Below are positions 19,335-62,746 of a stretch of DNA of 64,000 nt, one piece after another. This stretch comes from an uncultured Thermodesulfobacteriota bacterium (GTDB taxonomy: Bacteria > Desulfobacterota > JBBIRW01). Where the stretch lies: NCBI GenBank assembly GCA_964505185.1, contig CAZDGM010000004.1, forward strand, positions 2,054 through 66,053, given 5' to 3'. A program made the translations under genes and the position numbers. Below the pieces are notes generated by a model, which searched no databases, was not told the origin of the DNA, and was given only the letters and a program-made list of their open reading frames with translations. How positions within the stretch are numbered: the first letter of the stretch is position 1; each line of letters starts with the position of its first letter.

Positions 19335-20144
19335 ATGTTGATGAAGGAAAGGTTTATAACCCTTCTTACAGATTTTGGAACAAAGGATCCATATACTGCA
19401 TCACTTAAAGGTGCAATCCTCACAATCAATCCAAAAGTGGATATAATCGATATAACCCATGACATCCCTCCTCAGGACATCTTTGAGGCAGCCTTCATAT
19501 TGAAGTGCACATACAAATTCTTTCCAAGGGATACAATACACATTGCAGTTGTCGATCCTGGGGTTGGTGGAAGCAGAAGACCCATCCTTGTTAAAACAAG
19601 GGATTATATGTTTGTTGGTCCGGACAACGGCATCTTCAGTTTTATACTGGAGGAAGAAGAGGAGAAATATATATATCATCTGAATAACAGAAAATATCAT
19701 CTTCCTGTGATAAGCGACACATTCCATGGAAGAGATATTTTTGCACCTGTTGCAGCCCATCTTTCACTTGGAGTTAATCCAGAAAAAGTTGGCGAGCTCA
19801 TAGAAACAGCGTTCGTTCTTGATATACCAAAACCTGAAATAAAAAAGGGAAAAATATGTGGAACGATCATACATGTTGACCGTTTTGGAAATCTCATAAC
19901 AAACATTTCGTCGCATCTATTCAATAATTTTGTTGGCAACAATCCGTTTGAAATAGAACTGGCACAAAGAACTATAAAGAAGATAAATAGGGCTTATTCG
20001 GAATCCAATCCTGGTGAACTGCTTGCAATATTTGGAAGCGCAGGTTTCCTTGAGATCTCTATAAATCTTGGAAACTGCTCCAGGGAGCTTTCGCTCGGCA
20101 AAGGTGATAGAATATCAGTAAGGGTTCACAGACTCGTCGGTTGA
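19335..20144 (+). CDS. SAM hydroxide adenosyltransferase family protein (DUF62; fluorinase/chlorinase-like fold)
   Basis: N-terminal LLTDFGTKDPYTASLKGAIL...IIDITHDIPPQDI and VVDPGVGG motifs characteristic of the SalL/FlA-like SAM-cleaving family. Confidence 0.8.
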   Translation: MLMKERFITLLTDFGTKDPYTASLKGAILTINPKVDIIDITHDIPPQDIFEAAFILKCTYKFFPRDTIHIAVVDPGVGGSRRPILVKTRDYMFVGPDNGIFSFILEEEEEKYIYHLNNRKYHLPVISDTFHGRDIFAPVAAHLSLGVNPEKVGELIETAFVLDIPKPEIKKGKICGTIIHVDRFGNLITNISSHLFNNFVGNNPFEIELAQRTIKKINRAYSESNPGELLAIFGSAGFLEISINLGNCSRELSLGKGDRISVRVHRLVG

Positions 20145-22132
20145 TCATGAAAAGATATACTATAAAGCCCGCCATTGAGAAAAAATCCTTCAGAATAGAT
20201 TATGAAAAGGAGCTAAACCCCCAACAGCTTGAAGTTGTAATGGCCCCCTCGGGTCCCATTCTCGTAATAGCGGGGGCGGGAAGCGGAAAGACAAGGGTTG
20301 TCACCTTCAGGGTTGCGAGGTTAATTGAATCAGGTGTTGACCCTTCAAGAATACTCCTCCTCACATTTACAAATAAGGCTGCAAAAGAAATGCTTCACCG
20401 TGTTGAACATCTCCTCAGTATAGACACAAAGAGCATATGGGGAGGAACTTTTCATCACACAGCAAATTTAATATTACGAAGGCATTCAGAAATTCTTGGG
20501 TTCAAATCAAACTTCACAATACTGGACTCTGAAGATTCAAAGGAACTACTTGAAACATGTATAGCGGAGCTTGGCATTGAGACAAAGAAGAAGAGATTCC
20601 CAAAAGGTGAAGTCCTCAGGGACATTTCGGGATTAAGCATAAACAGGGAAAAGAGCATCGAGGAGATACTTGATGAGAGATACCCTTATTTCCTTGACCT
20701 CATTGAAGAGATACAGGCTGTACTTACATTTTACAAAAAGAAAAAGTTTCAGATGAATGCCATGGATTTTGATGATCTGTTACTTTACTGGAGGCATCTG
20801 CTTGAAAATCACCATGATATACTTAATTATTATTCAAACAGATTCCTGCATATCCTTGTTGACGAGTATCAGGATACAAACAAATTGCAAGCAGATATTG
20901 TTGATCTTCTCGCTTCCTCCCATAGAAATCTTATGGTTGTTGGAGACGATTCGCAGTCTATTTATTCATTCAGGGGTGCACATTTTTCAAATATAATTGA
21001 TTTCCCTTCAAGATACCCTGACTGCAAGATTTTCAAACTTGAAATAAATTACAGGAGCACACCCCAGATACTCTCCCTTGCAAACTCATCCATCTCAAAC
21101 AACAAAAGGCAATTTCAGAAGAGGCTCGTTTCAGTCAGGAAAGACGGACCCCTTCCTGCCCTTGTTTCCCTGAGGGATCCATCACTTCAAGCAGAGTTCG
21201 TTGCCCAGAGAATACTTGAATTGAAAGAAAATGGTACACCACTCAATGAGATCGCTGTCCTTTACAGGGCACATTACCAATCTATGGAATTGCAGATGGA
21301 GCTTACCAGGAGGGGTATTCCGTATGAGGTGAGATCAGGGATCAGGTTTTTCGAACAGGCCCACATCAAGGACATAGTCTCTTTTCTCCGCTTTATTCTC
21401 AATCCGCATGATGAACTTTCTTTTAAAAGGATCCTGAAGATCTATCCTGGTATAGGCCCTTCAACTGCGGAGAGGCTCTGGAATCTCTGTGTCTCTTCCA
21501 ACAATCCCATTGAGGTGCTGAAAAGTAATGATGCAAAAAAAATAATTCCAAGGATGGGAATCGATGGATACAGAGAGTTTCTTGAAACTATCGATAAATT
21601 AACAAAGTGTGATATAAATTCTGAGCCTTCTCCTCTGATCGAGATTATACTCGAAGGTGGATATACTGATTACCTGATCAGCCGTTATCCAAATGCTGAG
21701 TCCCGCCTCGAGGATATCCAGCAGCTTTCAGTTTTTGCAAAGAAATTCAAAAATCTTGAATCGTTCCTTAGCGAGCTTTCACTAATGAGTGCTGTTGCCG
21801 CTGAGGATATAGCGGAATCCGAGGCAGAGGATGAAAGGGTAGTGCTTAGCTCCATCCATCAGGCAAAAGGGCTGGAATGGAGGGTTATCTTTATCATATA
21901 TCTTGCTGAGGGAAGGATGCCATCTGCAAAAGGACTTCGTGATCCCGAGGGTGAAGAGGAAGAAAGGAGACTCTTCTATGTTGGAACAACAAGGGCAAAG
22001 GATGAGCTCTACCTCTGTTATCCACTGATGGGAAATAGCTGGGAAAGGGGTGGTCTTCTCCTGAAGCCATCGAGATTTATCCAGGAGCTCCCTGAGAATG
22101 TCTACGAAGAGTGGATTGTGGAGGAAAAATGA
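20141..22132 (+). CDS. ATP-dependent DNA helicase, UvrD/PcrA/Rep family
   Basis: Walker A GAGSGKTRV; motifs DEYQDTN, VGDDSQSIYSFRGA, and C-terminal YVGTTRAK. Confidence 0.9.
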   Translation: MIMKRYTIKPAIEKKSFRIDYEKELNPQQLEVVMAPSGPILVIAGAGSGKTRVVTFRVARLIESGVDPSRILLLTFTNKAAKEMLHRVEHLLSIDTKSIWGGTFHHTANLILRRHSEILGFKSNFTILDSEDSKELLETCIAELGIETKKKRFPKGEVLRDISGLSINREKSIEEILDERYPYFLDLIEEIQAVLTFYKKKKFQMNAMDFDDLLLYWRHLLENHHDILNYYSNRFLHILVDEYQDTNKLQADIVDLLASSHRNLMVVGDDSQSIYSFRGAHFSNIIDFPSRYPDCKIFKLEINYRSTPQILSLANSSISNNKRQFQKRLVSVRKDGPLPALVSLRDPSLQAEFVAQRILELKENGTPLNEIAVLYRAHYQSMELQMELTRRGIPYEVRSGIRFFEQAHIKDIVSFLRFILNPHDELSFKRILKIYPGIGPSTAERLWNLCVSSNNPIEVLKSNDAKKIIPRMGIDGYREFLETIDKLTKCDINSEPSPLIEIILEGGYTDYLISRYPNAESRLEDIQQLSVFAKKFKNLESFLSELSLMSAVAAEDIAESEAEDERVVLSSIHQAKGLEWRVIFIIYLAEGRMPSAKGLRDPEGEEEERRLFYVGTTRAKDELYLCYPLMGNSWERGGLLLKPSRFIQELPENVYEEWIVEEK

Positions 22133-54640: not shown

Positions 54641-55369
54641 CTATTTAGCTTTACCGTGATATATTGAAAACATCTCTTTCATGCGGATGGCATCTTCAAA
54701 CATCGAGATATTATTAAACATGAAATATCCTTCCTTAAAATCCTCTGTCATCTCAATGAGCTCCCTCAGATCACTATCAGTGTATTTATATCTGTATCCA
54801 TCCCTTCCATGCAATCGCAGATAGAATATTGAGAAACCTCGAGGCATCGTTCTGAAAGGATCCATGCATGGGACTAAATCAAGTTCTCTGCATATACGGT
54901 AGATCTGCTCATTTTCCCAGCATCCCCTCGGTTCCCATACGCATATTATCCCCTTCCTCTCGATCTTTTTGAAAAATCCTTTTAAATTTCTTATGCTCTC
55001 ATCTGATGGTATAAATGAGGAAGGGGTTTGAAAAACAACAATCCGTGATAAAAGGACTTCAGCAATTTTTCTTACAGCCTCCCACGCTTCAAAAACCTCA
55101 TCAGTATTCTGAAAATTTCCATATCTCCCCTTCTTACCCTCATCAATCCTCCTCTTTAATCTCCTGTATGTTGGGCTTGTAGGGGAATGGGTAATGAGCT
55201 GCCAGGCCTTTATAGTAAATTCAAAACCCTCAGGAACATCTTTTCTCCATTTCTCAATAGTTGAAAGCCGAGGTGGATCATAGAAGATCTGCTGAACTTC
55301 AACAACATCAAAATACCTCATATACCTTTCCCTTGATACGGAAAAGCCACAACATCCAACCTTTATCAT
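54641..55369 (-). CDS. DUF72 (UPF0759) TIM-barrel family protein
   Basis: N-terminus IKVGCCGFSV...YFDVVEVQQIFYDPP matches the DUF72 ...vGtsGW...fY.p signature. Confidence 0.75.
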   Translation of the reverse strand: MIKVGCCGFSVSRERYMRYFDVVEVQQIFYDPPRLSTIEKWRKDVPEGFEFTIKAWQLITHSPTSPTYRRLKRRIDEGKKGRYGNFQNTDEVFEAWEAVRKIAEVLLSRIVVFQTPSSFIPSDESIRNLKGFFKKIERKGIICVWEPRGCWENEQIYRICRELDLVPCMDPFRTMPRGFSIFYLRLHGRDGYRYKYTDSDLRELIEMTEDFKEGYFMFNNISMFEDAIRMKEMFSIYHGKAK

Positions 55370-55815
55370 AAATCTTTATTCGTGGAAATGTCTTTTATAA
55401 TTGCAGATGCCTTAAGAACGATATCCCTTTCACTATTATAATTCATAACCTTGACAGCCTCCTCAATCGGAAACCACCTTACCTCCTCAACCTCAAAGTC
55501 GTGATCTTCAACACTTCCAGAAAGATATTCAAGGAGATAGAAATGGACAGTTTTATTGATTTTGCTTTTGCTCTGCCTGTCATAAAACCAGTAGTTTATC
55601 TCCCCTATCTTATCCACAATCCTTCCATCAAGTCCTGTTTCCTCCTTTACCTCCCTTATGGCTGTCTTTTCAAAATCCTCTGATTCCTCAACGATCCCCT
55701 TTGGTAAGCACCAGATCCTTCCATCACCCCTACGGATAAGGGCAATAAATACCCTCTCTCCTTCTCTCCTGTATATGACACCTCCGGATGAGACCTGCTT
55801 TATAATTCTCCCCAT
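55366..55815 (-). CDS. Nudix hydrolase
   Basis: Nudix box GIVEESEDFEKTAIREVKEETGL; ATGA overlap with the DUF72 gene. Confidence 0.85.
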   Translation of the reverse strand: MGRIIKQVSSGGVIYRREGERVFIALIRRGDGRIWCLPKGIVEESEDFEKTAIREVKEETGLDGRIVDKIGEINYWFYDRQSKSKINKTVHFYLLEYLSGSVEDHDFEVEEVRWFPIEEAVKVMNYNSERDIVLKASAIIKDISTNKDL

Positions 55816-56885
55816 AGCGAACTCCTGCCAAGCTCTTTTCCAGAACTACATATCTTTAATGAACCCAGTTGAAGAAATTTTACCCTTGCTGGAACCTTAA
55901 GTGGTGTAAGAATATGAAATACACCTCTTCTTATATCAAATTTTATCAATATTCCAAGGGCAATTGTATTTAAATGCCTGTCACTCAGACCTACAAGGAG
56001 ATTTTCGAAATCCTCAATATCGTAAATCTCCAATTCATTAACAGAAAAGACATCCTTTATTCTAAAAAGATTTTCCCTGCTATAACCTCCCCTCGTGATT
56101 ATGGACATCCTGTTTATCTTTCTTTCCGCATAGAGCGCAGATGTTTCGAGTTCCCTCGAAAGGAAGGAAATGTCACTGCTTGTAACCCTCTTCCCAATCC
56201 CAATTGTTGCACCTATTATGGATATACCCTCGATGGGAAACTCCAATTCTGATGCCATGGAAAAATATTCTCCAAACATCCTCTCCCTGTATGCCTTTCT
56301 TATCTCCCTTTCCCTCTGTTTCACTGCTCCAACTGGCTTTAATTCATAGATCTTTAAATGATCCATCTTCCTGAAAGGATCCAAAATAGGCTCAAGCTCT
56401 CCATCATCAATCACAACAATGTTTTCTGGTTTAATTATATCTATTTTGTAAAGCTTAAGCGTCCTTGCTGCCCTTCCATGGATAAGACCTGATGTGTCAA
56501 CAATAGTGTATTCACTGCCAAGATAAGCTGACCTCTCCATAAGTGCCTTCACACCAGCAATAATAGGAACAAAGAATCCAACAGGTGAGGTGGAACCTAT
56601 GAATCTTGTTCCCACACATCTGATTTCGCATATACCTTCCTGCTTCTTCCTTGCAAGTCCTAATGCTATTGTTGTGGGAAGACCGATTGACTGTTGACCG
56701 ACATCTGTATCGAGCAAACTTACACGCTCACCTCGCATTGTAAGTTCATCAACGATAAACCTCGAGAGTGTGCTCTTTCCTGAATCGGTTTTGCCGAGAA
56801 TTACCGTTGGGCCCCTTCTCTTTCTTATTTCAGAAACAAGATCAACCCATTCGGGCGGGATCAGGATTTTATCTCTCCTTTCCAT
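55800..56885 (-). CDS. Clp1/Grc3-family polynucleotide 5'-hydroxyl kinase
   Basis: P-loop ILGKTDSGKSTL and the family-specific clasp motif LLDTDVGQQSIG (D-x-D-x-GQ). Three-domain length of 361 aa, as in archaeal Clp1. Confidence 0.8.
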   Translation of the reverse strand: MERRDKILIPPEWVDLVSEIRKRRGPTVILGKTDSGKSTLSRFIVDELTMRGERVSLLDTDVGQQSIGLPTTIALGLARKKQEGICEIRCVGTRFIGSTSPVGFFVPIIAGVKALMERSAYLGSEYTIVDTSGLIHGRAARTLKLYKIDIIKPENIVVIDDGELEPILDPFRKMDHLKIYELKPVGAVKQREREIRKAYRERMFGEYFSMASELEFPIEGISIIGATIGIGKRVTSSDISFLSRELETSALYAERKINRMSIITRGGYSRENLFRIKDVFSVNELEIYDIEDFENLLVGLSDRHLNTIALGILIKFDIRRGVFHILTPLKVPARVKFLQLGSLKICSSGKELGRSSLWGEL

Positions 56886-56903: not shown

Positions 56904-58001
56904 TCAATAGGCATCGGAAAGCAGGTGGACATTTCCGATTCTGACCCTTTTTAATCCCTCTTCATGGGCAACTTCCCTACATTTTTCCGCATGGGATCTT
57001 GATGTCCTCGGCAGATCTGTAAGATAAAACTGGGGATAGAATCCAAGAAGGGAAAAGGGGATTTCAGGGTCAAGGGAAGAGATAAAGCGTGCTATCAATC
57101 TTACCTCCTTTTCATCCACATATCCCGGAACAAGCAGTGTGCTTGCAATAAGCAGAGGAGGCTCCCGTCTCCTTTTAATAAATGATGCTGCGAAACGGAA
57201 ATTCTCCAGGGTCTGATCATTATATGTATTGCACAGTGCAAGATGGAGATTTTTATCCCATGCCTTTAAGTCAAACTTCACACAACCTCCGCTATCAAGT
57301 GCAATATTCATAATCTCTTCGAGAAAATCCCTCCTCATGGAACCATTCGTCTCCCAGCAGATCCTCAATATCCTGCCCCTCTTTCTCTTCAATGCAATCC
57401 TTGATGCTTTTATAGAATGGATAATCTGTGATGAAGGATCCCCACCAAAATAGCACACGCAGCTTGTTCTCTCATCGATAGCATCAATCAGCTCCTCGGC
57501 AGATATACCTCTTCCTTTTATGTCCATCCTTCTGAAATGCCAGTTCTGACAGAAAAGGCAGTTGAATGTGCATGCGTGATAGAAAACAGCGAGATTTTTA
57601 TAACCTATCTCAGGCCCTTTTTTGTAACAGAACTCGGGATAACCCGAGCCTGTTCCCCCTGGACATACCCAGTCAGCAACACAGTTTGTCGGGAGCGGAT
57701 CATAATAGTAGCTAAGATAGCCTTCTCCTCCTCCCCTGAGATAACCATCTTCAAACCTCCTTATGCCGCAAAAACCTCTTTCACCTTCTGGGATAATACA
57801 TCTGTTGCCGCAGAAATCACATTCCTTACCACCACCCTTTGGGATCTCCTCCCTTAAACGAAATCTCCTTCTGCTTTCTCTATGCAGTTCGAAAATATCT
57901 TCTTTAATATCGAAAGAACCTTCCCTTATGCAATCCGCACAATATCCAAGAATCGATGAAATGGTCAATGAACGATTATTACAACTTTTACACCTGCCCA
58001 C
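56904..58001 (-). CDS. PFL-activating-enzyme-like radical SAM protein with N-terminal Zn ribbon (paralogue of the AmmeMemoRadiSam-type enzyme at 7136..8209)
   Basis: CKSCNN...CADC ribbon; CDFCGNRCIIPEGERGFCGIRR (same Cys cluster as CQCGVCPRRCVIPSGGKGFCRGRR at 7136..8209); radical-SAM motif ACTFNCLFCQNW. Confidence 0.75.
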   Translation of the reverse strand: MGRCKSCNNRSLTISSILGYCADCIREGSFDIKEDIFELHRESRRRFRLREEIPKGGGKECDFCGNRCIIPEGERGFCGIRRFEDGYLRGGGEGYLSYYYDPLPTNCVADWVCPGGTGSGYPEFCYKKGPEIGYKNLAVFYHACTFNCLFCQNWHFRRMDIKGRGISAEELIDAIDERTSCVCYFGGDPSSQIIHSIKASRIALKRKRGRILRICWETNGSMRRDFLEEIMNIALDSGGCVKFDLKAWDKNLHLALCNTYNDQTLENFRFAASFIKRRREPPLLIASTLLVPGYVDEKEVRLIARFISSLDPEIPFSLLGFYPQFYLTDLPRTSRSHAEKCREVAHEEGLKRVRIGNVHLLSDAY

Positions 58002-58009
58002 TTATCTCC

Positions 58010-59278
58010 CTAAAAAAGCCTCATCTGTCTGTCATCACTTATCGGGATATCTTTCCCATGCTCGCCCTCATCATCCCATGCAATGGATACCTTACCGTAA
58101 ATACCATCATACCCCGGAATTATCTTTACAAAACCCTGCCTCACCTTCATAACGCCGGAATATATTTTTTGTGGAAGGAGCTTTGAAAGCTCTTCAGGGG
58201 TAAGGTTCAGCAGTATATTAAATTCCGATCCGCATTGGGAGACTATTTTTCTGTACTCCTTCTCAACCCTTTCTGTTCCCACACCAACCCCCAATGCATC
58301 TGCAATGATCTCCTCAAGCGGAATCAGATGTTTTGCAGGAATTGCACCTTCTGGAACATACCCCTCAGGTCTGTCAGCAAGCTCCTCAACCCTGTGCATA
58401 ACACCTATGGTTAATGGAGATTTACATACAGGACACCTGTTATTATACTTTTTACTCTCAACAGGGGAGAAGGAAACTCCACAATTCCTATGACCATCGA
58501 AATGGTATTTACCTTCCTGAGGAAAGAACTCGATTGTAAAGAGAAACCTATCCCTTGATTTTGTTTTTAAGGATTCAACAATATCCCTGTATGTAAGAGG
58601 GCAATTGAAAACATTTGCCTCCCTTCCAATTCTCGATGGTGAATGGGCATCTGAATTAGAGATCAGGGTAATATTATCAAGTGCTGATAGACGCCAGTTC
58701 ATCTGTGGATCTGAGGAAAGACCTGTTTCAATGACCCTTATCAGATCTGCCTGATCCTCAAATGCCTCCTCTATGGAATCAAAACCGGAGAATGAACCGA
58801 AGAGGGAAAACCAGGGTGTCCAGACATGTGCAGGGATGATCATTGCATCAGGAGAAATATCGCAAACCATCTTTACCAGATCCTTTACAGGAAATCCGAA
58901 CACCGGTCTTCCATCCGATCCGATCTTACCCAGTCGTGAAAGCAATGAATTAAGTTTTCCAGCAGCTTCAAAGGATGGAAGGAAGATGATGCAGTGAATC
59001 TTTCTGAGCTTTCCACCACTTGAAAAAATGTTGCTAACTTCTCCTGTCAGCATGAATTTTACCGATTGATCACCCTTCTTTAATGAGAATAGCCCATTTC
59101 CCTCAGGCTTGAGCTTTCCCATCAATTCTGCGAAGTATGTTGGATGGGTAAAATCACCTGTTCCAAGAAGGTTTATCCCCTTCAGTTTTGCCCATTTTGC
59201 CATATTCTCTACATCCATATCCCTGCTCGTTGCCCTGCTATACTTCGAATGAACATGAAAATCTGCAATAATCCTCAT
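58010..59278 (-). CDS. endonuclease Q-like protein (PHP-fold nuclease, TIGR00375-type) with C-terminal Zn finger
   Basis: N-terminal IADFHVHSKYSRA...LLGTGDFTHP; internal GLSSD, SNSDAHSP, GKYHFDGHRNC; Zn finger CPVCKSPLT. These are the motifs I associate with archaeal EndoQ. Confidence 0.7.
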   Translation of the reverse strand: MRIIADFHVHSKYSRATSRDMDVENMAKWAKLKGINLLGTGDFTHPTYFAELMGKLKPEGNGLFSLKKGDQSVKFMLTGEVSNIFSSGGKLRKIHCIIFLPSFEAAGKLNSLLSRLGKIGSDGRPVFGFPVKDLVKMVCDISPDAMIIPAHVWTPWFSLFGSFSGFDSIEEAFEDQADLIRVIETGLSSDPQMNWRLSALDNITLISNSDAHSPSRIGREANVFNCPLTYRDIVESLKTKSRDRFLFTIEFFPQEGKYHFDGHRNCGVSFSPVESKKYNNRCPVCKSPLTIGVMHRVEELADRPEGYVPEGAIPAKHLIPLEEIIADALGVGVGTERVEKEYRKIVSQCGSEFNILLNLTPEELSKLLPQKIYSGVMKVRQGFVKIIPGYDGIYGKVSIAWDDEGEHGKDIPISDDRQMRLF

Positions 59279-59317
59279 GAAAACCTCCCTTTGAATATTG
59301 CACCTTCCGCTTTCTGG

Positions 59318-59593: not shown

Positions 59594-61315
59594 TTAACCT
59601 CTCCCCTTAGAGGTCATCTTAATAAGTTCATTAAGGGGAAGGGTATTCAATACATCATCCTTTGTCAGCCAGCCTCTCCTCGCTACAGCGATACCAAATT
59701 CCATCAGTTCAAGGTGATTCATGATATGTGCATCCGTATTTATGCAAAGCTTTACACCCAACTCCTTTGCCCTCCTTGAGAGGATATCATTTAAATCCAT
59801 CCTCTGGGGGTAAGCATTTATCTCAAGGGAAATATTCCTCCTCTTCGCCTCTTTCATAATAAGGTCAAAGTCCAGCTCATAAGCCTCCCTTTCTCCAATA
59901 AGCCTTCCTGTGGGATGGGCTATGATATTCACATAGTGGTTAGACATGGCATTCAGGATCCTCTTTGTAAGAACCTCTTTTCCTGCCTTGAACCCATAAT
60001 GGATCGATGCAATAACTATATCAAGCTTCTTTAAAACCTCATCAGGTAGATCAAGTGATCCATCTCCAAGGATGTCAACCTCAATCCCCTTAAGTATCCT
60101 TATCTTTGATTTCCTGTTGAGCCTTTCAATCTCCTCTATCTGCTCCATAACTTCCTCTGGTCCCATCCCCCTTGCAATCCCAAGTGATTTTGTGTGATCT
60201 GCAATCGCTATATATTCGTAACCCTTTTTTTCTGCATATCTGGCAATCTCCTCTATTTCATGAGCACCATCACTCCACTTAGAGTGTATGTGGAGATCCC
60301 CTTTTATATCAGAGAGTTCAATAAGCTGGGGAAGTCTTCCTTCGGCTGCTGCCTCAATCTCGCCCTGATCTTCCCTTAATTCAGGTGGAATCCATTTGAG
60401 TCCGAGTGCTCTGTAAACCTCCTCCTCCTCCTTCCCCGCAATCTTTTTGCCTGTTTTTTCATCGAAAACGCCATATTCACTTATCTTCAGGCCCAGCCTA
60501 TCTGCTATCTGTCTTAGATGTATATTATGATTTTTTGATCCCGTGAAATATTGAAGCGCTGCACCGAAACTTTCAGGCTCAACAACCCTCAGATCAACCT
60601 GAAGTCCATCATGGGTAAGCACGCTGGACTTTGTTGAACCCTTTGCAAGCACATCAGAAACATAAGGAAGAGAAACAAAGTAATCCATGATCTTTTTGGG
60701 ATCATGGGAAATTATGAGTATGTCTACATCCTTTATGGTTTCCTTCATCCTCCTTAGACTTCCCGCTATATTCAACCTCTTTACCTCTTTGAGCGAAAGT
60801 AGTGCCTTTTCAAATTCCCTGGCAATGGGAAGAACCCTTCCGAGGAGCATCCTTTCCCTTCCCTTTTTATAAAGCTCTATACCCTTTCTGATATTCTCCT
60901 CGGTTTTTTCCCTTATCCCTGGAAGTTTACACAGTTTGTGACTTTTTGCAGCCTCTTCCAGTTCTTCTATCGTTTTTATTCCCAGGGATTCATATATGAG
61001 CTTTGCAGTCTTTGGTCCAAGACTCGGTATGGAGAGCATCTGCACAAGTCCTCTGGGGATCTCCTTTTTCAGCCTCTCATAATCCTCAAATGTCCCTCTT
61101 TCTATGATCTCAACAATCTTCTGTGCGAGGTCTTTGCCTATGCCAGGGATCTTTGTAAGCTCGCCCCTTTTTGAAATATCCTCTATATTCTCCGTTAGAT
61201 TCTCTATATTCTGGGCTGCTTTCCTGTAAGCCCTGATCCTGAAAGGGTTCTCATCTTTGATTTCGAGGAGATCAGCAACGTCGTTGAATATCCTTGCAAT
61301 CTCCATGTTTTTCAT
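59594..61315 (-). CDS. polX: family X DNA polymerase (PolX) with C-terminal PHP 3'-5' exonuclease/phosphoesterase domain
   Basis: 8-kDa domain (FRIRAYRKAAQNI); HhH motifs (IPGIGKDLAQKI, LPGIREKT); Pol-beta nucleotidyltransferase (GSLRRMKETIKDVDILI); PHP domain (DLHIHSKWSDGAHEIEEIARYAEKKGYEYIAIADH). Confidence 0.9.
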   Translation of the reverse strand: MKNMEIARIFNDVADLLEIKDENPFRIRAYRKAAQNIENLTENIEDISKRGELTKIPGIGKDLAQKIVEIIERGTFEDYERLKKEIPRGLVQMLSIPSLGPKTAKLIYESLGIKTIEELEEAAKSHKLCKLPGIREKTEENIRKGIELYKKGRERMLLGRVLPIAREFEKALLSLKEVKRLNIAGSLRRMKETIKDVDILIISHDPKKIMDYFVSLPYVSDVLAKGSTKSSVLTHDGLQVDLRVVEPESFGAALQYFTGSKNHNIHLRQIADRLGLKISEYGVFDEKTGKKIAGKEEEEVYRALGLKWIPPELREDQGEIEAAAEGRLPQLIELSDIKGDLHIHSKWSDGAHEIEEIARYAEKKGYEYIAIADHTKSLGIARGMGPEEVMEQIEEIERLNRKSKIRILKGIEVDILGDGSLDLPDEVLKKLDIVIASIHYGFKAGKEVLTKRILNAMSNHYVNIIAHPTGRLIGEREAYELDFDLIMKEAKRRNISLEINAYPQRMDLNDILSRRAKELGVKLCINTDAHIMNHLELMEFGIAVARRGWLTKDDVLNTLPLNELIKMTSKGRG

Positions 61316-61368: not shown

Positions 61369-62589
61369 CTAACATACGGGAAACCTCCCATTTAAAAGCA
61401 TCTCGCAGAAGGATCCTATACGGGAGAGCTCCTCATCGATTATATCCTCACAGCTTCTGGATATCTTTTTAAAACTCGCCCGATCCTTCTTCAATATCTG
61501 TGCCGATGCGATCTTTGGTCGATCAATGGGAGAGCCGATCTGACTGCATAACCACACATATACCTCCCTTATTCCATCCACCTCTTCATATATCCTGTTT
61601 GCAATCTGGTGGGCAAGAATATTGTATATCTTTCCCACATGACTTACAGGATTTTTCCCGGCAGCTGCCTCTGCTCCTGTTGGCCTGTTCAGTGCAATTA
61701 TCCCGTTTACCCTGTTTCCTCTTCCAACCTGACCTGAATCTGCATCTTCAGCTGAGGTCCCAAGGACACTCAGATATACACCCTCAACCCCCCTCCTTTT
61801 CCTGTCAAGGGTATTGAAGTATAGATTGGTATTCCTGAAGTAGCCTTTATTTAAAAGGGTAAAGTTTTTTATCTCCCTCATTACAACCCTTTTCCTCTCG
61901 AAATAATATGCCTCATTCTCGATAAATCTATCTATAAAAGGCATAGCAATGGTAAGGTGAATATCCCTCCCCTCCCTGAATCCCATAACCTTCACATCCT
62001 CACCTGTTTCAGGAAACCTGTTTTTGAACTCTGAAGAATTAAGGAATCTTTCAATCTCCAGAACAAGCTTCTCCGTCGGTGTAAGCGGTGCATAACCAAC
62101 AGCAGCTGATGTATCATTGGATCCATACAATCCCTTCCTATCCTTTTTGAATAAAGATGTAAGTTCCGCTGATCCCGGTTTCAACTCAACCTGATAACGG
62201 ACATGCTCTTCAGGATCAACAAACCTTAAATTCTTTCTTATCCAGTCCTTTGCAGTTTCAATTGTGATCTCCTCCACCGCTATCACTTTTCCATCCACCC
62301 TGATCGTTGCTCTATCACCTATTATAATCTTCATAGGCTCTATAACCCTTCCACCACCAAATCTTCTCTCCACACCACCTGCAACAAGAAGCCCCTTGTC
62401 TATGTTAAAATGGCACATACCCCCTGTGAGTCGTAAATACTCGCGTGAAAGTGCCCTTGAGACCTCCTCCATTATGGAATCACATATGAAATCAGGATGA
62501 CCAAGGCCCTTGCGCTCAACTATCTCAACCTTCTGTTCTTCAATCGGGATTGACTTCAGTTCTTCCACAATTATCTTCCTTACACCCAT
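61369..62589 (-). CDS. archaeal-type S-adenosylmethionine synthetase (MAT, PF01941-type)
   Basis: ERKGLGHPDFICDSI, NDTSAAVGYAPLTPTEKLVLEIERFLNS, GEDVKVMG, VYLSVLGTSAEDADSGQVGRGNRVNG, GKNPVSHVGKIYNILAHQIA are near-identical to M. jannaschii MAT motifs. Start placed at MGVRKIIVEE, preceded by GGAGAGGGGAAGG; the ORF-track start at 62604 sits inside that RBS. Confidence 0.9.
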   Translation of the reverse strand: MGVRKIIVEELKSIPIEEQKVEIVERKGLGHPDFICDSIMEEVSRALSREYLRLTGGMCHFNIDKGLLVAGGVERRFGGGRVIEPMKIIIGDRATIRVDGKVIAVEEITIETAKDWIRKNLRFVDPEEHVRYQVELKPGSAELTSLFKKDRKGLYGSNDTSAAVGYAPLTPTEKLVLEIERFLNSSEFKNRFPETGEDVKVMGFREGRDIHLTIAMPFIDRFIENEAYYFERKRVVMREIKNFTLLNKGYFRNTNLYFNTLDRKRRGVEGVYLSVLGTSAEDADSGQVGRGNRVNGIIALNRPTGAEAAAGKNPVSHVGKIYNILAHQIANRIYEEVDGIREVYVWLCSQIGSPIDRPKIASAQILKKDRASFKKISRSCEDIIDEELSRIGSFCEMLLNGRFPVC

Positions 62590-62746
62590 CCTTCCCCTCT
62601 CCATTTTCTTTTTTTCTCTTCTGGATTGCCTGCTGGGCTATACAGTCCCCATCCGTTGGATCACAACCCTTCTTTCTCAATTCACACCATCCATCCATGC
62701 TATACTTGCAATACATCTATTCCTTTTTACCACAAAAAGGGTTCAA

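Follow-up and report, generated by a model that had tools for sequence, protein, structure and literature searches.

A short-form endonuclease Q of the bacterial type encoded in a Desulfobacterota genome

The DNA analyzed here is a 64,000-nucleotide stretch (hereafter, the window) of contig CAZDGM010000004.1 from an uncultured Thermodesulfobacteriota bacterium, and its subject is an open reading frame (ORF) on the minus strand, 58010..59278, that encodes a homologue of endonuclease Q (EndoQ). In the ORF listing of the window, it has an ATG start and a length of 422 amino acids (aa). The frame is intact, the ribosome-binding site is good, and the first residues, MRIIADFH, line up with MRFIADFH, the consensus of the homologues. 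The ORF and all five motifs cited by a first-pass annotation, which had named the gene an EndoQ homologue in a bacterial genome, are real: DFHVHSKYS (residues 6-14), GTGD (39-42), SNSDAHSP (207-214), GKYH (256-259), and CPVC (282-285) are present in the translation. There is no reasonable doubt that the window itself is bacterial: among its products are PBP2/MrdA (735 bits, cutoff 455), PpiD, ArnT, GGDEF proteins, several two-component kinases, ResB, cytochrome c assembly proteins, and a lytic transglycosylase with YbgF/BamD-like TPR repeats. The host is a bacterium represented by a Deltaproteobacteria/Syntrophobacterales-like metagenome-assembled genome (MAG). In a genome scan restricted to one genome per species, from which 80 EndoQ loci were compared, one locus (L001, a 247-kb contig of 'Deltaproteobacteria bacterium isolate SLF170214_bin_359') has an identical gene order and an EndoQ 95% identical to that of the window, and derives from a conspecific organism or a very close relative.

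The assignment to the EndoQ family is borne out by profile, sequence, and fold comparisons. A phmmer search of PDB sequences returned Pyrococcus furiosus EndoQ (PfuEndoQ; 5zb8, 7k30-7k33) as the only significant matches (E ~1e-53), aligning residues 3-399 of the 422 with residues 3-382 of the 400 in the crystallized protein at ~32% identity. The closest database homologues are 95-98% identical (E 1e-277 to 1e-280), and Pfam family PF27218 is assigned in the database to every EndoQ homologue. A structural model computed with AlphaFold2 (AF2) on a 24-sequence alignment reached a mean predicted local distance difference test score (pLDDT) of 88.4 and a predicted template modeling score (pTM) of 0.88. 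Foldseek placed it on 5zb8 and 7k30 with TM-scores of 0.82-0.86 by query (TMq) and 0.87-0.91 by target (TMt; E 3e-38, 404-416 columns), and superposition on PfuEndoQ gave a root-mean-square deviation of 2.3-2.9 Å over ~405 columns. The three-domain architecture, comprising a polymerase and histidinol phosphatase (PHP) domain, a domain that binds Zn, and a helical domain at the C-terminus with helices predicted at residues 321-380 (pLDDT 83-96), is alignable end to end with that of PfuEndoQ. By family membership, fold, active-site conservation, tail motif, bacterial distribution, and tree position, the ORF is a genuine, intact bacterial short-form EndoQ.

The first-pass annotation had proposed a search against TIGR00375 as a check. 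TIGR00375 is the best NCBIfam model and is matched end to end, but the score of 196.5 bits falls below the curated cutoff of 326.6. The model is a hypothetical equivalog for the archaeal-type EndoQ subfamily; archaeal EndoQs score 377-434 bits, whereas tested members of the bacterial-type clade, among them one that carries the NCBI name 'endonuclease Q family protein', score 147-210 bits. TIGR00375 cleanly splits two deep subfamilies, archaeal and bacterial-type, and because its score lies below the cutoff, the window protein is filed not under TIGR00375 proper but in the sister bacterial-type subfamily.

At the residue level, the comparison draws on the structure of PfuEndoQ, in which H8, H10, E76, H84, H139, and D193 are metal ligands described as 'completely conserved among homologues', R114 and H195 are further essential residues, and H139, T142, E167, the L168 main chain, G169, L170, N191, and D193 form the lesion pocket (PMC5961232). 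The same work describes a Trp144 wedge and a 'highly conserved' Cys4 zinc site (C249, C252, C268, C271), and a review assigns S171 the role of a steric gate in EndoQ–DNA complexes (PMC8307549). In the window protein, the metal ligands are H8, H10, E80, H95, H151, and D210, the essential non-ligand residues are R124 and H212, and the pocket consists of T154, E184, T185, G186, L187, S188, and N208 together with H151 and D210; all of these are invariant in 81 bacterial homologues. The wedge, W156, is Trp in 69 of these sequences, His in 11, and Tyr in one. Every residue whose mutation impairs PfuEndoQ (the ligands, R114, H195, W144, G169, and L170) is kept, as are the pocket residues T142, E167, S171, and N191.

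The first-pass annotation had also called for conservation of the zinc-finger cysteines, and here the alignment is exact in position though not in residue. All four sites are aligned, but H263, C266, C282, and C285 form a His-Cys3 arrangement where PfuEndoQ has Cys4. The first position is His in 81 of 81 bacterial homologues and Cys in all Thermococci examined. A second difference lies in the pocket, where Pfu L168, at which the base contact is made by the main chain, corresponds to Thr185; Thr is invariant at this position in the 81 bacterial homologues, and Leu is present in every Thermococci sequence examined. Because of this invariance, His263 and Thr185 are regarded as signatures of the subfamily. 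Since His is a competent Zn ligand, the His-Cys3 site is expected to be functional and to bind Zn through H263, C266, C282, and C285. Small insertions in the PHP domain relative to PfuEndoQ comprise residues 84-90 and 163-165.

The C-terminus is a predicted disordered tail, residues 404-422, that ends in QMRLF and thereby fits the bacterial beta-clamp-binding consensus QL[S/D]LF. The terminal pattern Q-x-x-[LMIF]-[FLW], with a chance occurrence of ~1.3e-4 per position, occurs in 66 of the 76 homologues that are both complete and genome-derived (strictly QxxLF in 55 of 76) and in 110 of the 120 closest database homologues. A full PCNA-interacting protein (PIP) box ending, Qxx[LIMV]xx[FYW][FYWLI], was found in none of the same 120, and a looser PIP-type pattern matched 12. 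Thermococcales EndoQs present the reverse picture, with a PIP-like tail in 95 of 120 and a clamp-type ending in none. In the enzyme from Thermococcus kodakarensis (TkoEndoQ), the C-terminal PIP box is required for binding of proliferating cell nuclear antigen (PCNA; Kd 55 nM) and for stimulation of cleavage (PMC4858679). The same study stated that bacterial EndoQ homologues carry beta-clamp motifs and listed ~45 of them in its Suppl. Fig. S1, as short forms (Syntrophorhabdus, Geobacter, Thermodesulfovibrio, Aminicenantes, Parcubacteria) and long forms (Desulfovibrio, myxobacteria, and others). With 422 aa (range 405-464), an EndoQ module only, and a terminal QxxLF, the window protein belongs among the short forms. 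The parallel between PIP and clamp motifs in archaeal and bacterial EndoQ is therefore already in print and is not new. QMRLF is probably a DnaN-binding motif.

Taken with what has been established for relatives, namely Zn-dependent cleavage 5' of deoxyuridine (dU), deoxyinosine (dI), deoxyxanthosine (dX), and apurinic/apyrimidinic (AP) sites after base flipping (PMC5961232, PMC8307549) and stimulation of archaeal EndoQ by the sliding clamp via a C-terminal motif (PMC4858679), these features make it very probable that the window protein is a stand-alone, Zn-dependent lesion endonuclease, with delivery by the clamp a probable further step. In such a mechanism, EndoQ would flip a deaminated or missing base (uracil, hypoxanthine, xanthine, or an AP site) into the pocket beside the metal site and would hydrolyze the backbone at the bond immediately 5' of it, so that the nick has a 3'-OH and a 5'-phosphate end. 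Synthesis from this nick by a polymerase, for which the PolX gene two positions upstream is a possible source, would afterwards displace or remove the damaged nucleotide. The beta sliding clamp probably delivers EndoQ to DNA via QMRLF on the disordered tail, a contact that would be the bacterial counterpart of the archaeal PCNA–PIP interaction. The activity and substrate range are predicted from homology at ~32% identity, and recruitment by DnaN and cooperation with PolX are proposed.

Several observations weigh against this reading. Besides the sub-cutoff TIGR00375 score and an identity to PfuEndoQ of no more than ~32%, Pfu K320, a contributor to DNA binding, aligns with Glu in the window protein. 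No published assay was found for an EndoQ of the short-form, His-Cys3, QxxLF-tail type; Bacillus is absent from the published list of clamp motifs (PMC4858679), and the assayed Bacillus enzymes may belong to another subfamily. With respect to partners, PolX is only weakly linked to EndoQ (6 of 80 loci), and clustering of 628 neighboring ORFs from the 80 loci gave no universal partner gene.

Among described systems, the closest are the short forms of Shiraishi et al. 2016 (PMC4858679), such as Syntrophorhabdus aromaticivorans WP_038003961 (423 aa, ending QATLF) and Geobacter sulfurreducens WP_041914077 (426 aa). They share with the window protein the length class, the single module, and the terminal Q-x-x-L-F, and, compared by length, motif, and taxon, nothing of substance differs. 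Relatives of this kind in the database share 60-66% identity with the window protein, and NCBI names them 'endonuclease Q family protein'. The P. furiosus and T. kodakarensis enzymes (PF1551, TK0887; 5ZB8, 7K30-7K33; 424 and 421 aa) are alike in the three-domain fold, ligands, Arg and His residues, pocket, Trp wedge, and a clamp-binding-type motif that ends a disordered C-terminal tail. They differ in the tail itself, with PIP boxes QRSITEFL and QRTLLQYI in place of QMRLF; the window protein also stands apart by its ~32% identity, His for the first Zn Cys, Thr for L168, the PHP insertions, and the sub-cutoff profile score. Experimental precedent for EndoQ function in bacteria comes from Bacillus pumilus and Bacillus subtilis, whose EndoQs are reported, as cited in PMC5961232 and PMC8307549, to make a 5' incision at dU, dI, and AP sites (Shiraishi et al. 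2017, Biosci Biotechnol Biochem 81:931); given their absence from the list of clamp-motif homologues, they may belong to a different one of the two published bacterial EndoQ families, known from second-hand accounts as 'family 2' and 'family 3'. Endonuclease V (Nfi) and ExoIII/Mth212-type uridine endonucleases are functional analogues that nick at deaminated bases without a glycosylase, in alternative excision or nucleotide incision repair (PMC8307549). Their folds are unrelated to that of EndoQ. Incision by endonuclease V falls at the second bond 3' of the lesion, that by EndoQ immediately 5' of it.

A further group consists of EndoQ–UvrD fusions (~950-1,250 aa) from Desulfovibrio, Desulfobacter, myxobacteria, Cloacimonadota, Calditrichia, and others. 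The EndoQ module at their N-terminus shares 46-56% identity with the window protein, the His-Cys3 site recurs in the locus-derived members checked, and most end in QxxLF; unlike the window protein, they carry a C-terminal UvrD/REP helicase (PF00580 and PF13361). As a side observation, of interest only since many EndoQ homologues carry such a fused helicase, the window encodes at 20141-22132 (+) a PcrA/UvrD-like helicase of 663 aa that is not linked to EndoQ, scores 527 bits on TIGR01073 (cutoff 911), and lacks a clamp-type C-terminus.

Table 1. Features of the EndoQ gene and its neighbors in the window
Feature	Coordinates	Strand	Basis
EndoQ coding sequence, 422 aa + stop	58010..59278	-	TAG at 58010-58012; PfuEndoQ match, TIGR00375, AF2 model
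Shine-Dalgarno-like GGGAGG, 5 nt 5' of ATG	59284..59289	-	Read from sequence
PHP catalytic domain, residues 1-252	58523..59278	-	Residue mapping onto PfuEndoQ
Zn-binding domain, residues 253-319	58322..58522	-	PfuEndoQ mapping; ligand positions at 58424-58492
C-terminal helical domain, residues 320-403	58070..58321	-	Aligned to PfuEndoQ 304-382
Disordered C-terminal tail, residues 404-422	58013..58069	-	pLDDT <50
QMRLF, residues 418-422, putative beta sliding-clamp-binding motif	58013..58027	-	Consensus QL[S/D]LF
Archaeal-type methionine adenosyltransferase (MAT)	61369-62604	-	PF01941, 556 bits; NF003363, 654.7 bits, above cutoff
PolX (DNA polymerase/3'-5' exonuclease), two genes upstream of EndoQ	59594..61315	-	NF006375, 603.6 bits, cutoff 426
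EF-Tu-domain-2-like stand-alone beta-barrel protein, 84 aa	59318-59572	-	PF03144, 33 bits; 39 nt upstream of EndoQ
Radical SAM enzyme, Cys-rich N-terminus	56904-58001	-	Distant AmmeMemoRadiSam likeness, 77.5 bits, cutoff 220
Clp1-type P-loop protein, putative polynucleotide kinase	55800-56885	-	PF16575, 119 bits
NUDIX hydrolase	55366-55815	-	Family scan
DUF72 protein	54641-55369	-	Family scan
baeRF-1 family 10, eRF1 homologue, 381 aa	53486-54631	-	PF18854, 87.5 bits; eRF1 domains 2 and 3

The genes around EndoQ (Table 1) bear on whether the enzyme acts alone. At the downstream end of the run, the baeRF-1 protein belongs to one of the few baeRF-1 families that keep the catalytic glutamine (Burroughs and Aravind 2019), and its position directly downstream of the DUF72, NUDIX, and Clp1-like genes is a hint that a module for quality control of RNA or ribosomes lies next to EndoQ. 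A model that extends to EndoQ itself would have PolX, the EF-Tu-domain-2-like (EF-Tu-D2-like) protein, EndoQ, the radical SAM enzyme, the Clp1-like kinase, NUDIX, DUF72, and baeRF-1 form a co-transcribed nucleic-acid damage-response operon on whose products EndoQ depends. The genes are co-directional and separated by gaps of 8-39 nt or overlap, and terminator-like sites are not in excess (the promoter/terminator scan of the EndoQ run gave counts no higher than shuffled sequence and was thus uninformative as to the extent of an operon). Co-direction is weak evidence for an operon, because all genes from 47.6 to 63.8 kb lie on the same strand.

Comparison by tblastn of all window neighbors against the 80 loci, complemented by the unbiased clustering of neighboring ORFs, located an EF-Tu-D2-like gene near EndoQ in 9-12 loci (within 8 kb in 12) and PolX within 8 kb in 6, with PolX directly adjacent only in L031. 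In the Syntrophobacterales loci L002, L003, L004, and L006, the EF-Tu-D2-like, radical SAM, DUF72, and Clp1-like genes stay around EndoQ although their order is changed. Outside the conspecific MAG, however, the full cluster does not occur, the majority of the 80 loci have none of these neighbors, and several of the proposed members look related to RNA or translation rather than to DNA repair. A conserved functional partner was likewise rejected, since only lineage-specific synteny was found across the loci. Because the PolX linkage is weak, a universal partner is lacking, and no PADLOC model matches the protein, EndoQ is treated as stand-alone, and dependence on a damage-response operon is considered unlikely.

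A more elaborate version, in which an operon of this lineage encodes a clamp-coupled module for alternative excision repair and EndoQ initiates it, is offered as improbable speculation. If it were true, clamp-tethered EndoQ would nick 5' of the lesion, PolX would carry out strand-displacement or gap-filling synthesis and 3'-end cleaning, and end healing or nucleotide sanitization would fall to the co-transcribed Clp1-like polynucleotide kinase, NUDIX hydrolase, and DUF72 protein. On this view, the EF-Tu-D2-like, radical SAM, DUF72, and Clp1-like genes would have stayed around EndoQ in Syntrophobacterales, despite rearrangement, for functional reasons rather than by inheritance of gene order.

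Other EndoQ loci showed arrangements of their own. EF-Tu-D2-like homologues lie near EndoQ in L002 (5295-5552), L035 (7278-7547), L046, L011, L038, and L067, a co-location that includes Syntrophobacterales and several lineages of the candidate phyla radiation (CPR) and is far above chance. A DUF763 gene (PF05559, 457 bits) is found directly upstream of EndoQ, 2 nt from the start codon, in L002, L004, and L006 (6907-7998); it is also near EndoQ in L039, partially matched in L003, and absent from the window. Downstream of EndoQ, L002 carries a DUF5131-like radical SAM gene and a DUF488 gene. In Omnitrophota-type loci (L010, L016, L019, L022, L024, L030, L037, L043, L054, L055, and related), EndoQ is embedded in a pyrimidine-biosynthesis cluster, with PyrR-, aspartate carbamoyltransferase-, and dihydroorotase-like genes upstream and a PyrK-like gene downstream (pyrR-pyrB-pyrC-pyrK), as named by eye from cluster representatives.

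It is also conceivable that the main role of EndoQ is the restriction of uracil-containing or modified phage DNA, an activity compatible with clamp-delivered lesion cleavage. A scan of EndoQ against PADLOC-DB 2.0 (E<=0.001) matched no defence-system model, on which ground membership in a defence system was rejected, and the neighbors gave two weak matches only. The neighborhood is housekeeping-like and varies with lineage, as in the pyrimidine-biosynthesis clusters just described, the clamp-binding tail suggests coupling to replication or repair, and EndoQ is kept in small-genome CPR lineages. A primary role in restriction is accordingly regarded as quite unlikely, and a clamp-delivered repair enzyme remains the preferred reading.

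The distribution of the family corrects the first-pass annotation, which had described EndoQ as characteristic of archaea, with few bacterial cases known. When 1.84 billion representatives at 50% identity were scanned exhaustively with HMMER, 1,034 clusters of EndoQ homologues were obtained at E<=1e-30 and 2,503 at E<=1e-10, and a word-indexed database search returned at least 8,000 homologues at E<=1e-10. The named proteins among the 120 closest matches come from Syntrophaceae, Desulfobacterota, 'Deltaproteobacteria', and Pseudomonadota MAGs; their annotations are 'endonuclease Q family protein', 'TIGR00375 family', and the misleading 'DNA helicase UvrD'. In the genome scan, homologues 46-64% identical were recovered from ~25 differently named bacterial lineages, including Zixibacteria, Nitrospirota, Omnitrophota, Armatimonadota, WOR-3, Aminicenantes, Cloacimonadota, Calditrichia, Aerophobetes, and many CPR/Patescibacteria. 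Most of the distant representatives are fusions of ~1,000-1,200 aa with a UvrD/REP helicase, and the existence of such fusions explains the 'UvrD' annotations on some short forms. With the ~45 homologues of the 2016 supplement, drawn from many phyla, already in print, the claim of rarity is not supported.

Among the database homologues, five (P0361, P0362, P0364, P0370, and P0445) have EndoQ matches split by insertions of ~300-900 aa. A Pfam scan of two of them detected LAGLIDADG domains in the insertions of P0361 and P0370, and an intein-splicing domain in P0370 as well. Judged by their domain content, these two insertions are inteins within EndoQ; those of P0362, P0364, and P0445 may be inteins too, as the split matches suggest.

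One alternative holds that EndoQ, together with the archaeal-type MAT, belongs to a block of genes recently acquired from an archaeon; the first-pass annotation had taken the two as a sign of archaeal-derived genes. The first EndoQs described were archaeal, archaea-to-bacteria transfer has been proposed in the literature (including PMC5961232 and PMC4858679), the MAT is real, and further neighbors, the Clp1 P-loop protein and baeRF-1 family 10, are likewise of archaeo-eukaryotic type. Each of these three neighbor families is, however, widely spread in bacteria, and the MAT itself has as its nearest named relatives (60-64%) Actinomycetota, Dictyoglomaceae, Nitrospinae, and Nitrospirae mixed with Bathyarchaeia and Aenigmatarchaeota. 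The two genes lie near each other in only 1 of the 80 loci, the conspecific L001. The composition of EndoQ is typical of the 53 genes of the window (GC z = 0.69, GC at third codon positions [GC3] z = 0.04, length-corrected codon-usage residual z = -0.69), and that of MAT is equally so.

The relatives of EndoQ point the same way. Bacterial proteins are the nearest at each level of similarity: identity is 60-66% with a large number of them, 47-49% with the closest full-length sequences that bear an archaeal label, and 29-33% with Thermococcales. The comparison with archaeal EndoQs by neighbor-joining, a rough tree without support values that was rooted on Thermococci by assumption, placed the window protein deep inside the bacterial radiation, paired with L001 as sister to Syntrophobacterales and then to Zixibacteria and Nitrospirota, in line with its host. 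The archaeal sequences gathered for this tree with a PfuEndoQ query are Thermococcales only; methanogen (for example, M. acetivorans) and Bacillus EndoQs are absent from it. The tail, finally, carries the bacterial clamp motif and no PIP box. A recent archaeal island was thus rejected on relatives, tree position, tail motif, composition, and absent synteny, and acquisition of EndoQ and MAT as one block from an archaeon is very unlikely.

The deeper history of the family is a separate matter, since the earliest branches of the bacterial-type clade include proteins from archaeal MAGs. The RLG65888.1 '[archaeon]' cluster (P0449/P0511), one copy of which lies on a 1.4-Mb contig, RME79605.1 '[Methanobacteriota archaeon]' (P0500), and the similar P0406 and P0486, all from archaeal MAGs or unlabelled, are 47-49% identical to bacterial-type EndoQ and 30-35% to PfuEndoQ. 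None has a clamp-type C-terminus: a truncated PIP-like ending, Q-x-x-[LI]-x-[DE]-F, is shared by P0500, P0406, and P0486, while P0449 terminates in …QRLDEFFYRSQ and keeps the Cys4 zinc site. These basal proteins are compatible with an ancient transfer from archaea to bacteria followed by a change of the clamp motif, and an ancient archaeal origin of the whole EndoQ family is possible. The direction of transfer is a question about the root of the family, with its more than 1,000 clusters, and not about the window locus, and it is not fixed by this tree; any inter-domain transfer of EndoQ would be ancient and without evidence of an archaeal island at the locus.

Two archaeal labels among the relatives deserve separate mention. 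The MAT relative P0243, 87% identical and found on a 6-kb contig, is labelled 'Candidatus Aenigmatarchaeota archaeon', a label that is probably a binning error because MAT copies 96-100% identical occur in bacterial MAGs. Similarly, the 3-kb contig L076, labelled Methanosarcinales, encodes an EndoQ with the His-Cys3 and Thr signatures of the bacterial homologues.

The weakest alternative, a generic PHP-family phosphoesterase (histidinol-phosphatase-like or RNase AM-like) in place of a lesion-specific endonuclease, could appeal to the PHP fold of the N-terminal domain, a weak CehA/McbA metallohydrolase match (19.5 bits), and remote structural matches of the model to PHP phosphoesterases, but it is essentially refuted on profile, structure, and residue evidence and barely credible: the Pfam scan of EndoQ (E<=0.001) gave no match, including to PHP PF02811 or histidinol-phosphatase models, while the neighboring PolX does match PF02811 in the same search; the NCBIfam scan gave no HisJ-type match; generic PHP structures reach a TMq of 0.29-0.35 (0.35 for the next-best PDB structure) and cover the N-terminal domain only; and the EndoQ-specific Zn-binding and C-terminal helical domains align at full length with pocket and wedge residues kept. 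The profile and structural matches that might have gone to a generic PHP protein thus went to EndoQ, with its catalytic and Zn-finger positions aligned.

As a discovery, the gene matters little. Publications from 2015-2017 onward describe the family, its spread over phyla, its short and helicase-fused architectures, and its clamp tail; close relatives already receive the EndoQ name from annotation pipelines, and the window EndoQ is another, unremarkable member of a known and widely distributed bacterial type. What the analysis corrects is the wording, persisting in papers from 2015 to 2024 (including PMC5961232), that EndoQ is known from few bacteria, put as 'some bacteria' in reviews as late as 2024, which understates its spread: the family comprises more than 1,000 clusters at 50% identity and reaches CPR/Patescibacteria, Omnitrophota, Zixibacteria, Armatimonadota, and Desulfobacterota. 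For specialists in DNA repair, it delineates a bacterial-type subfamily marked by an invariant His-Cys3 zinc site, within which the PIP-like tails of archaeal-MAG proteins and the QxxLF tails of bacterial ones provide a natural example of a clamp motif that differs between domains of life.

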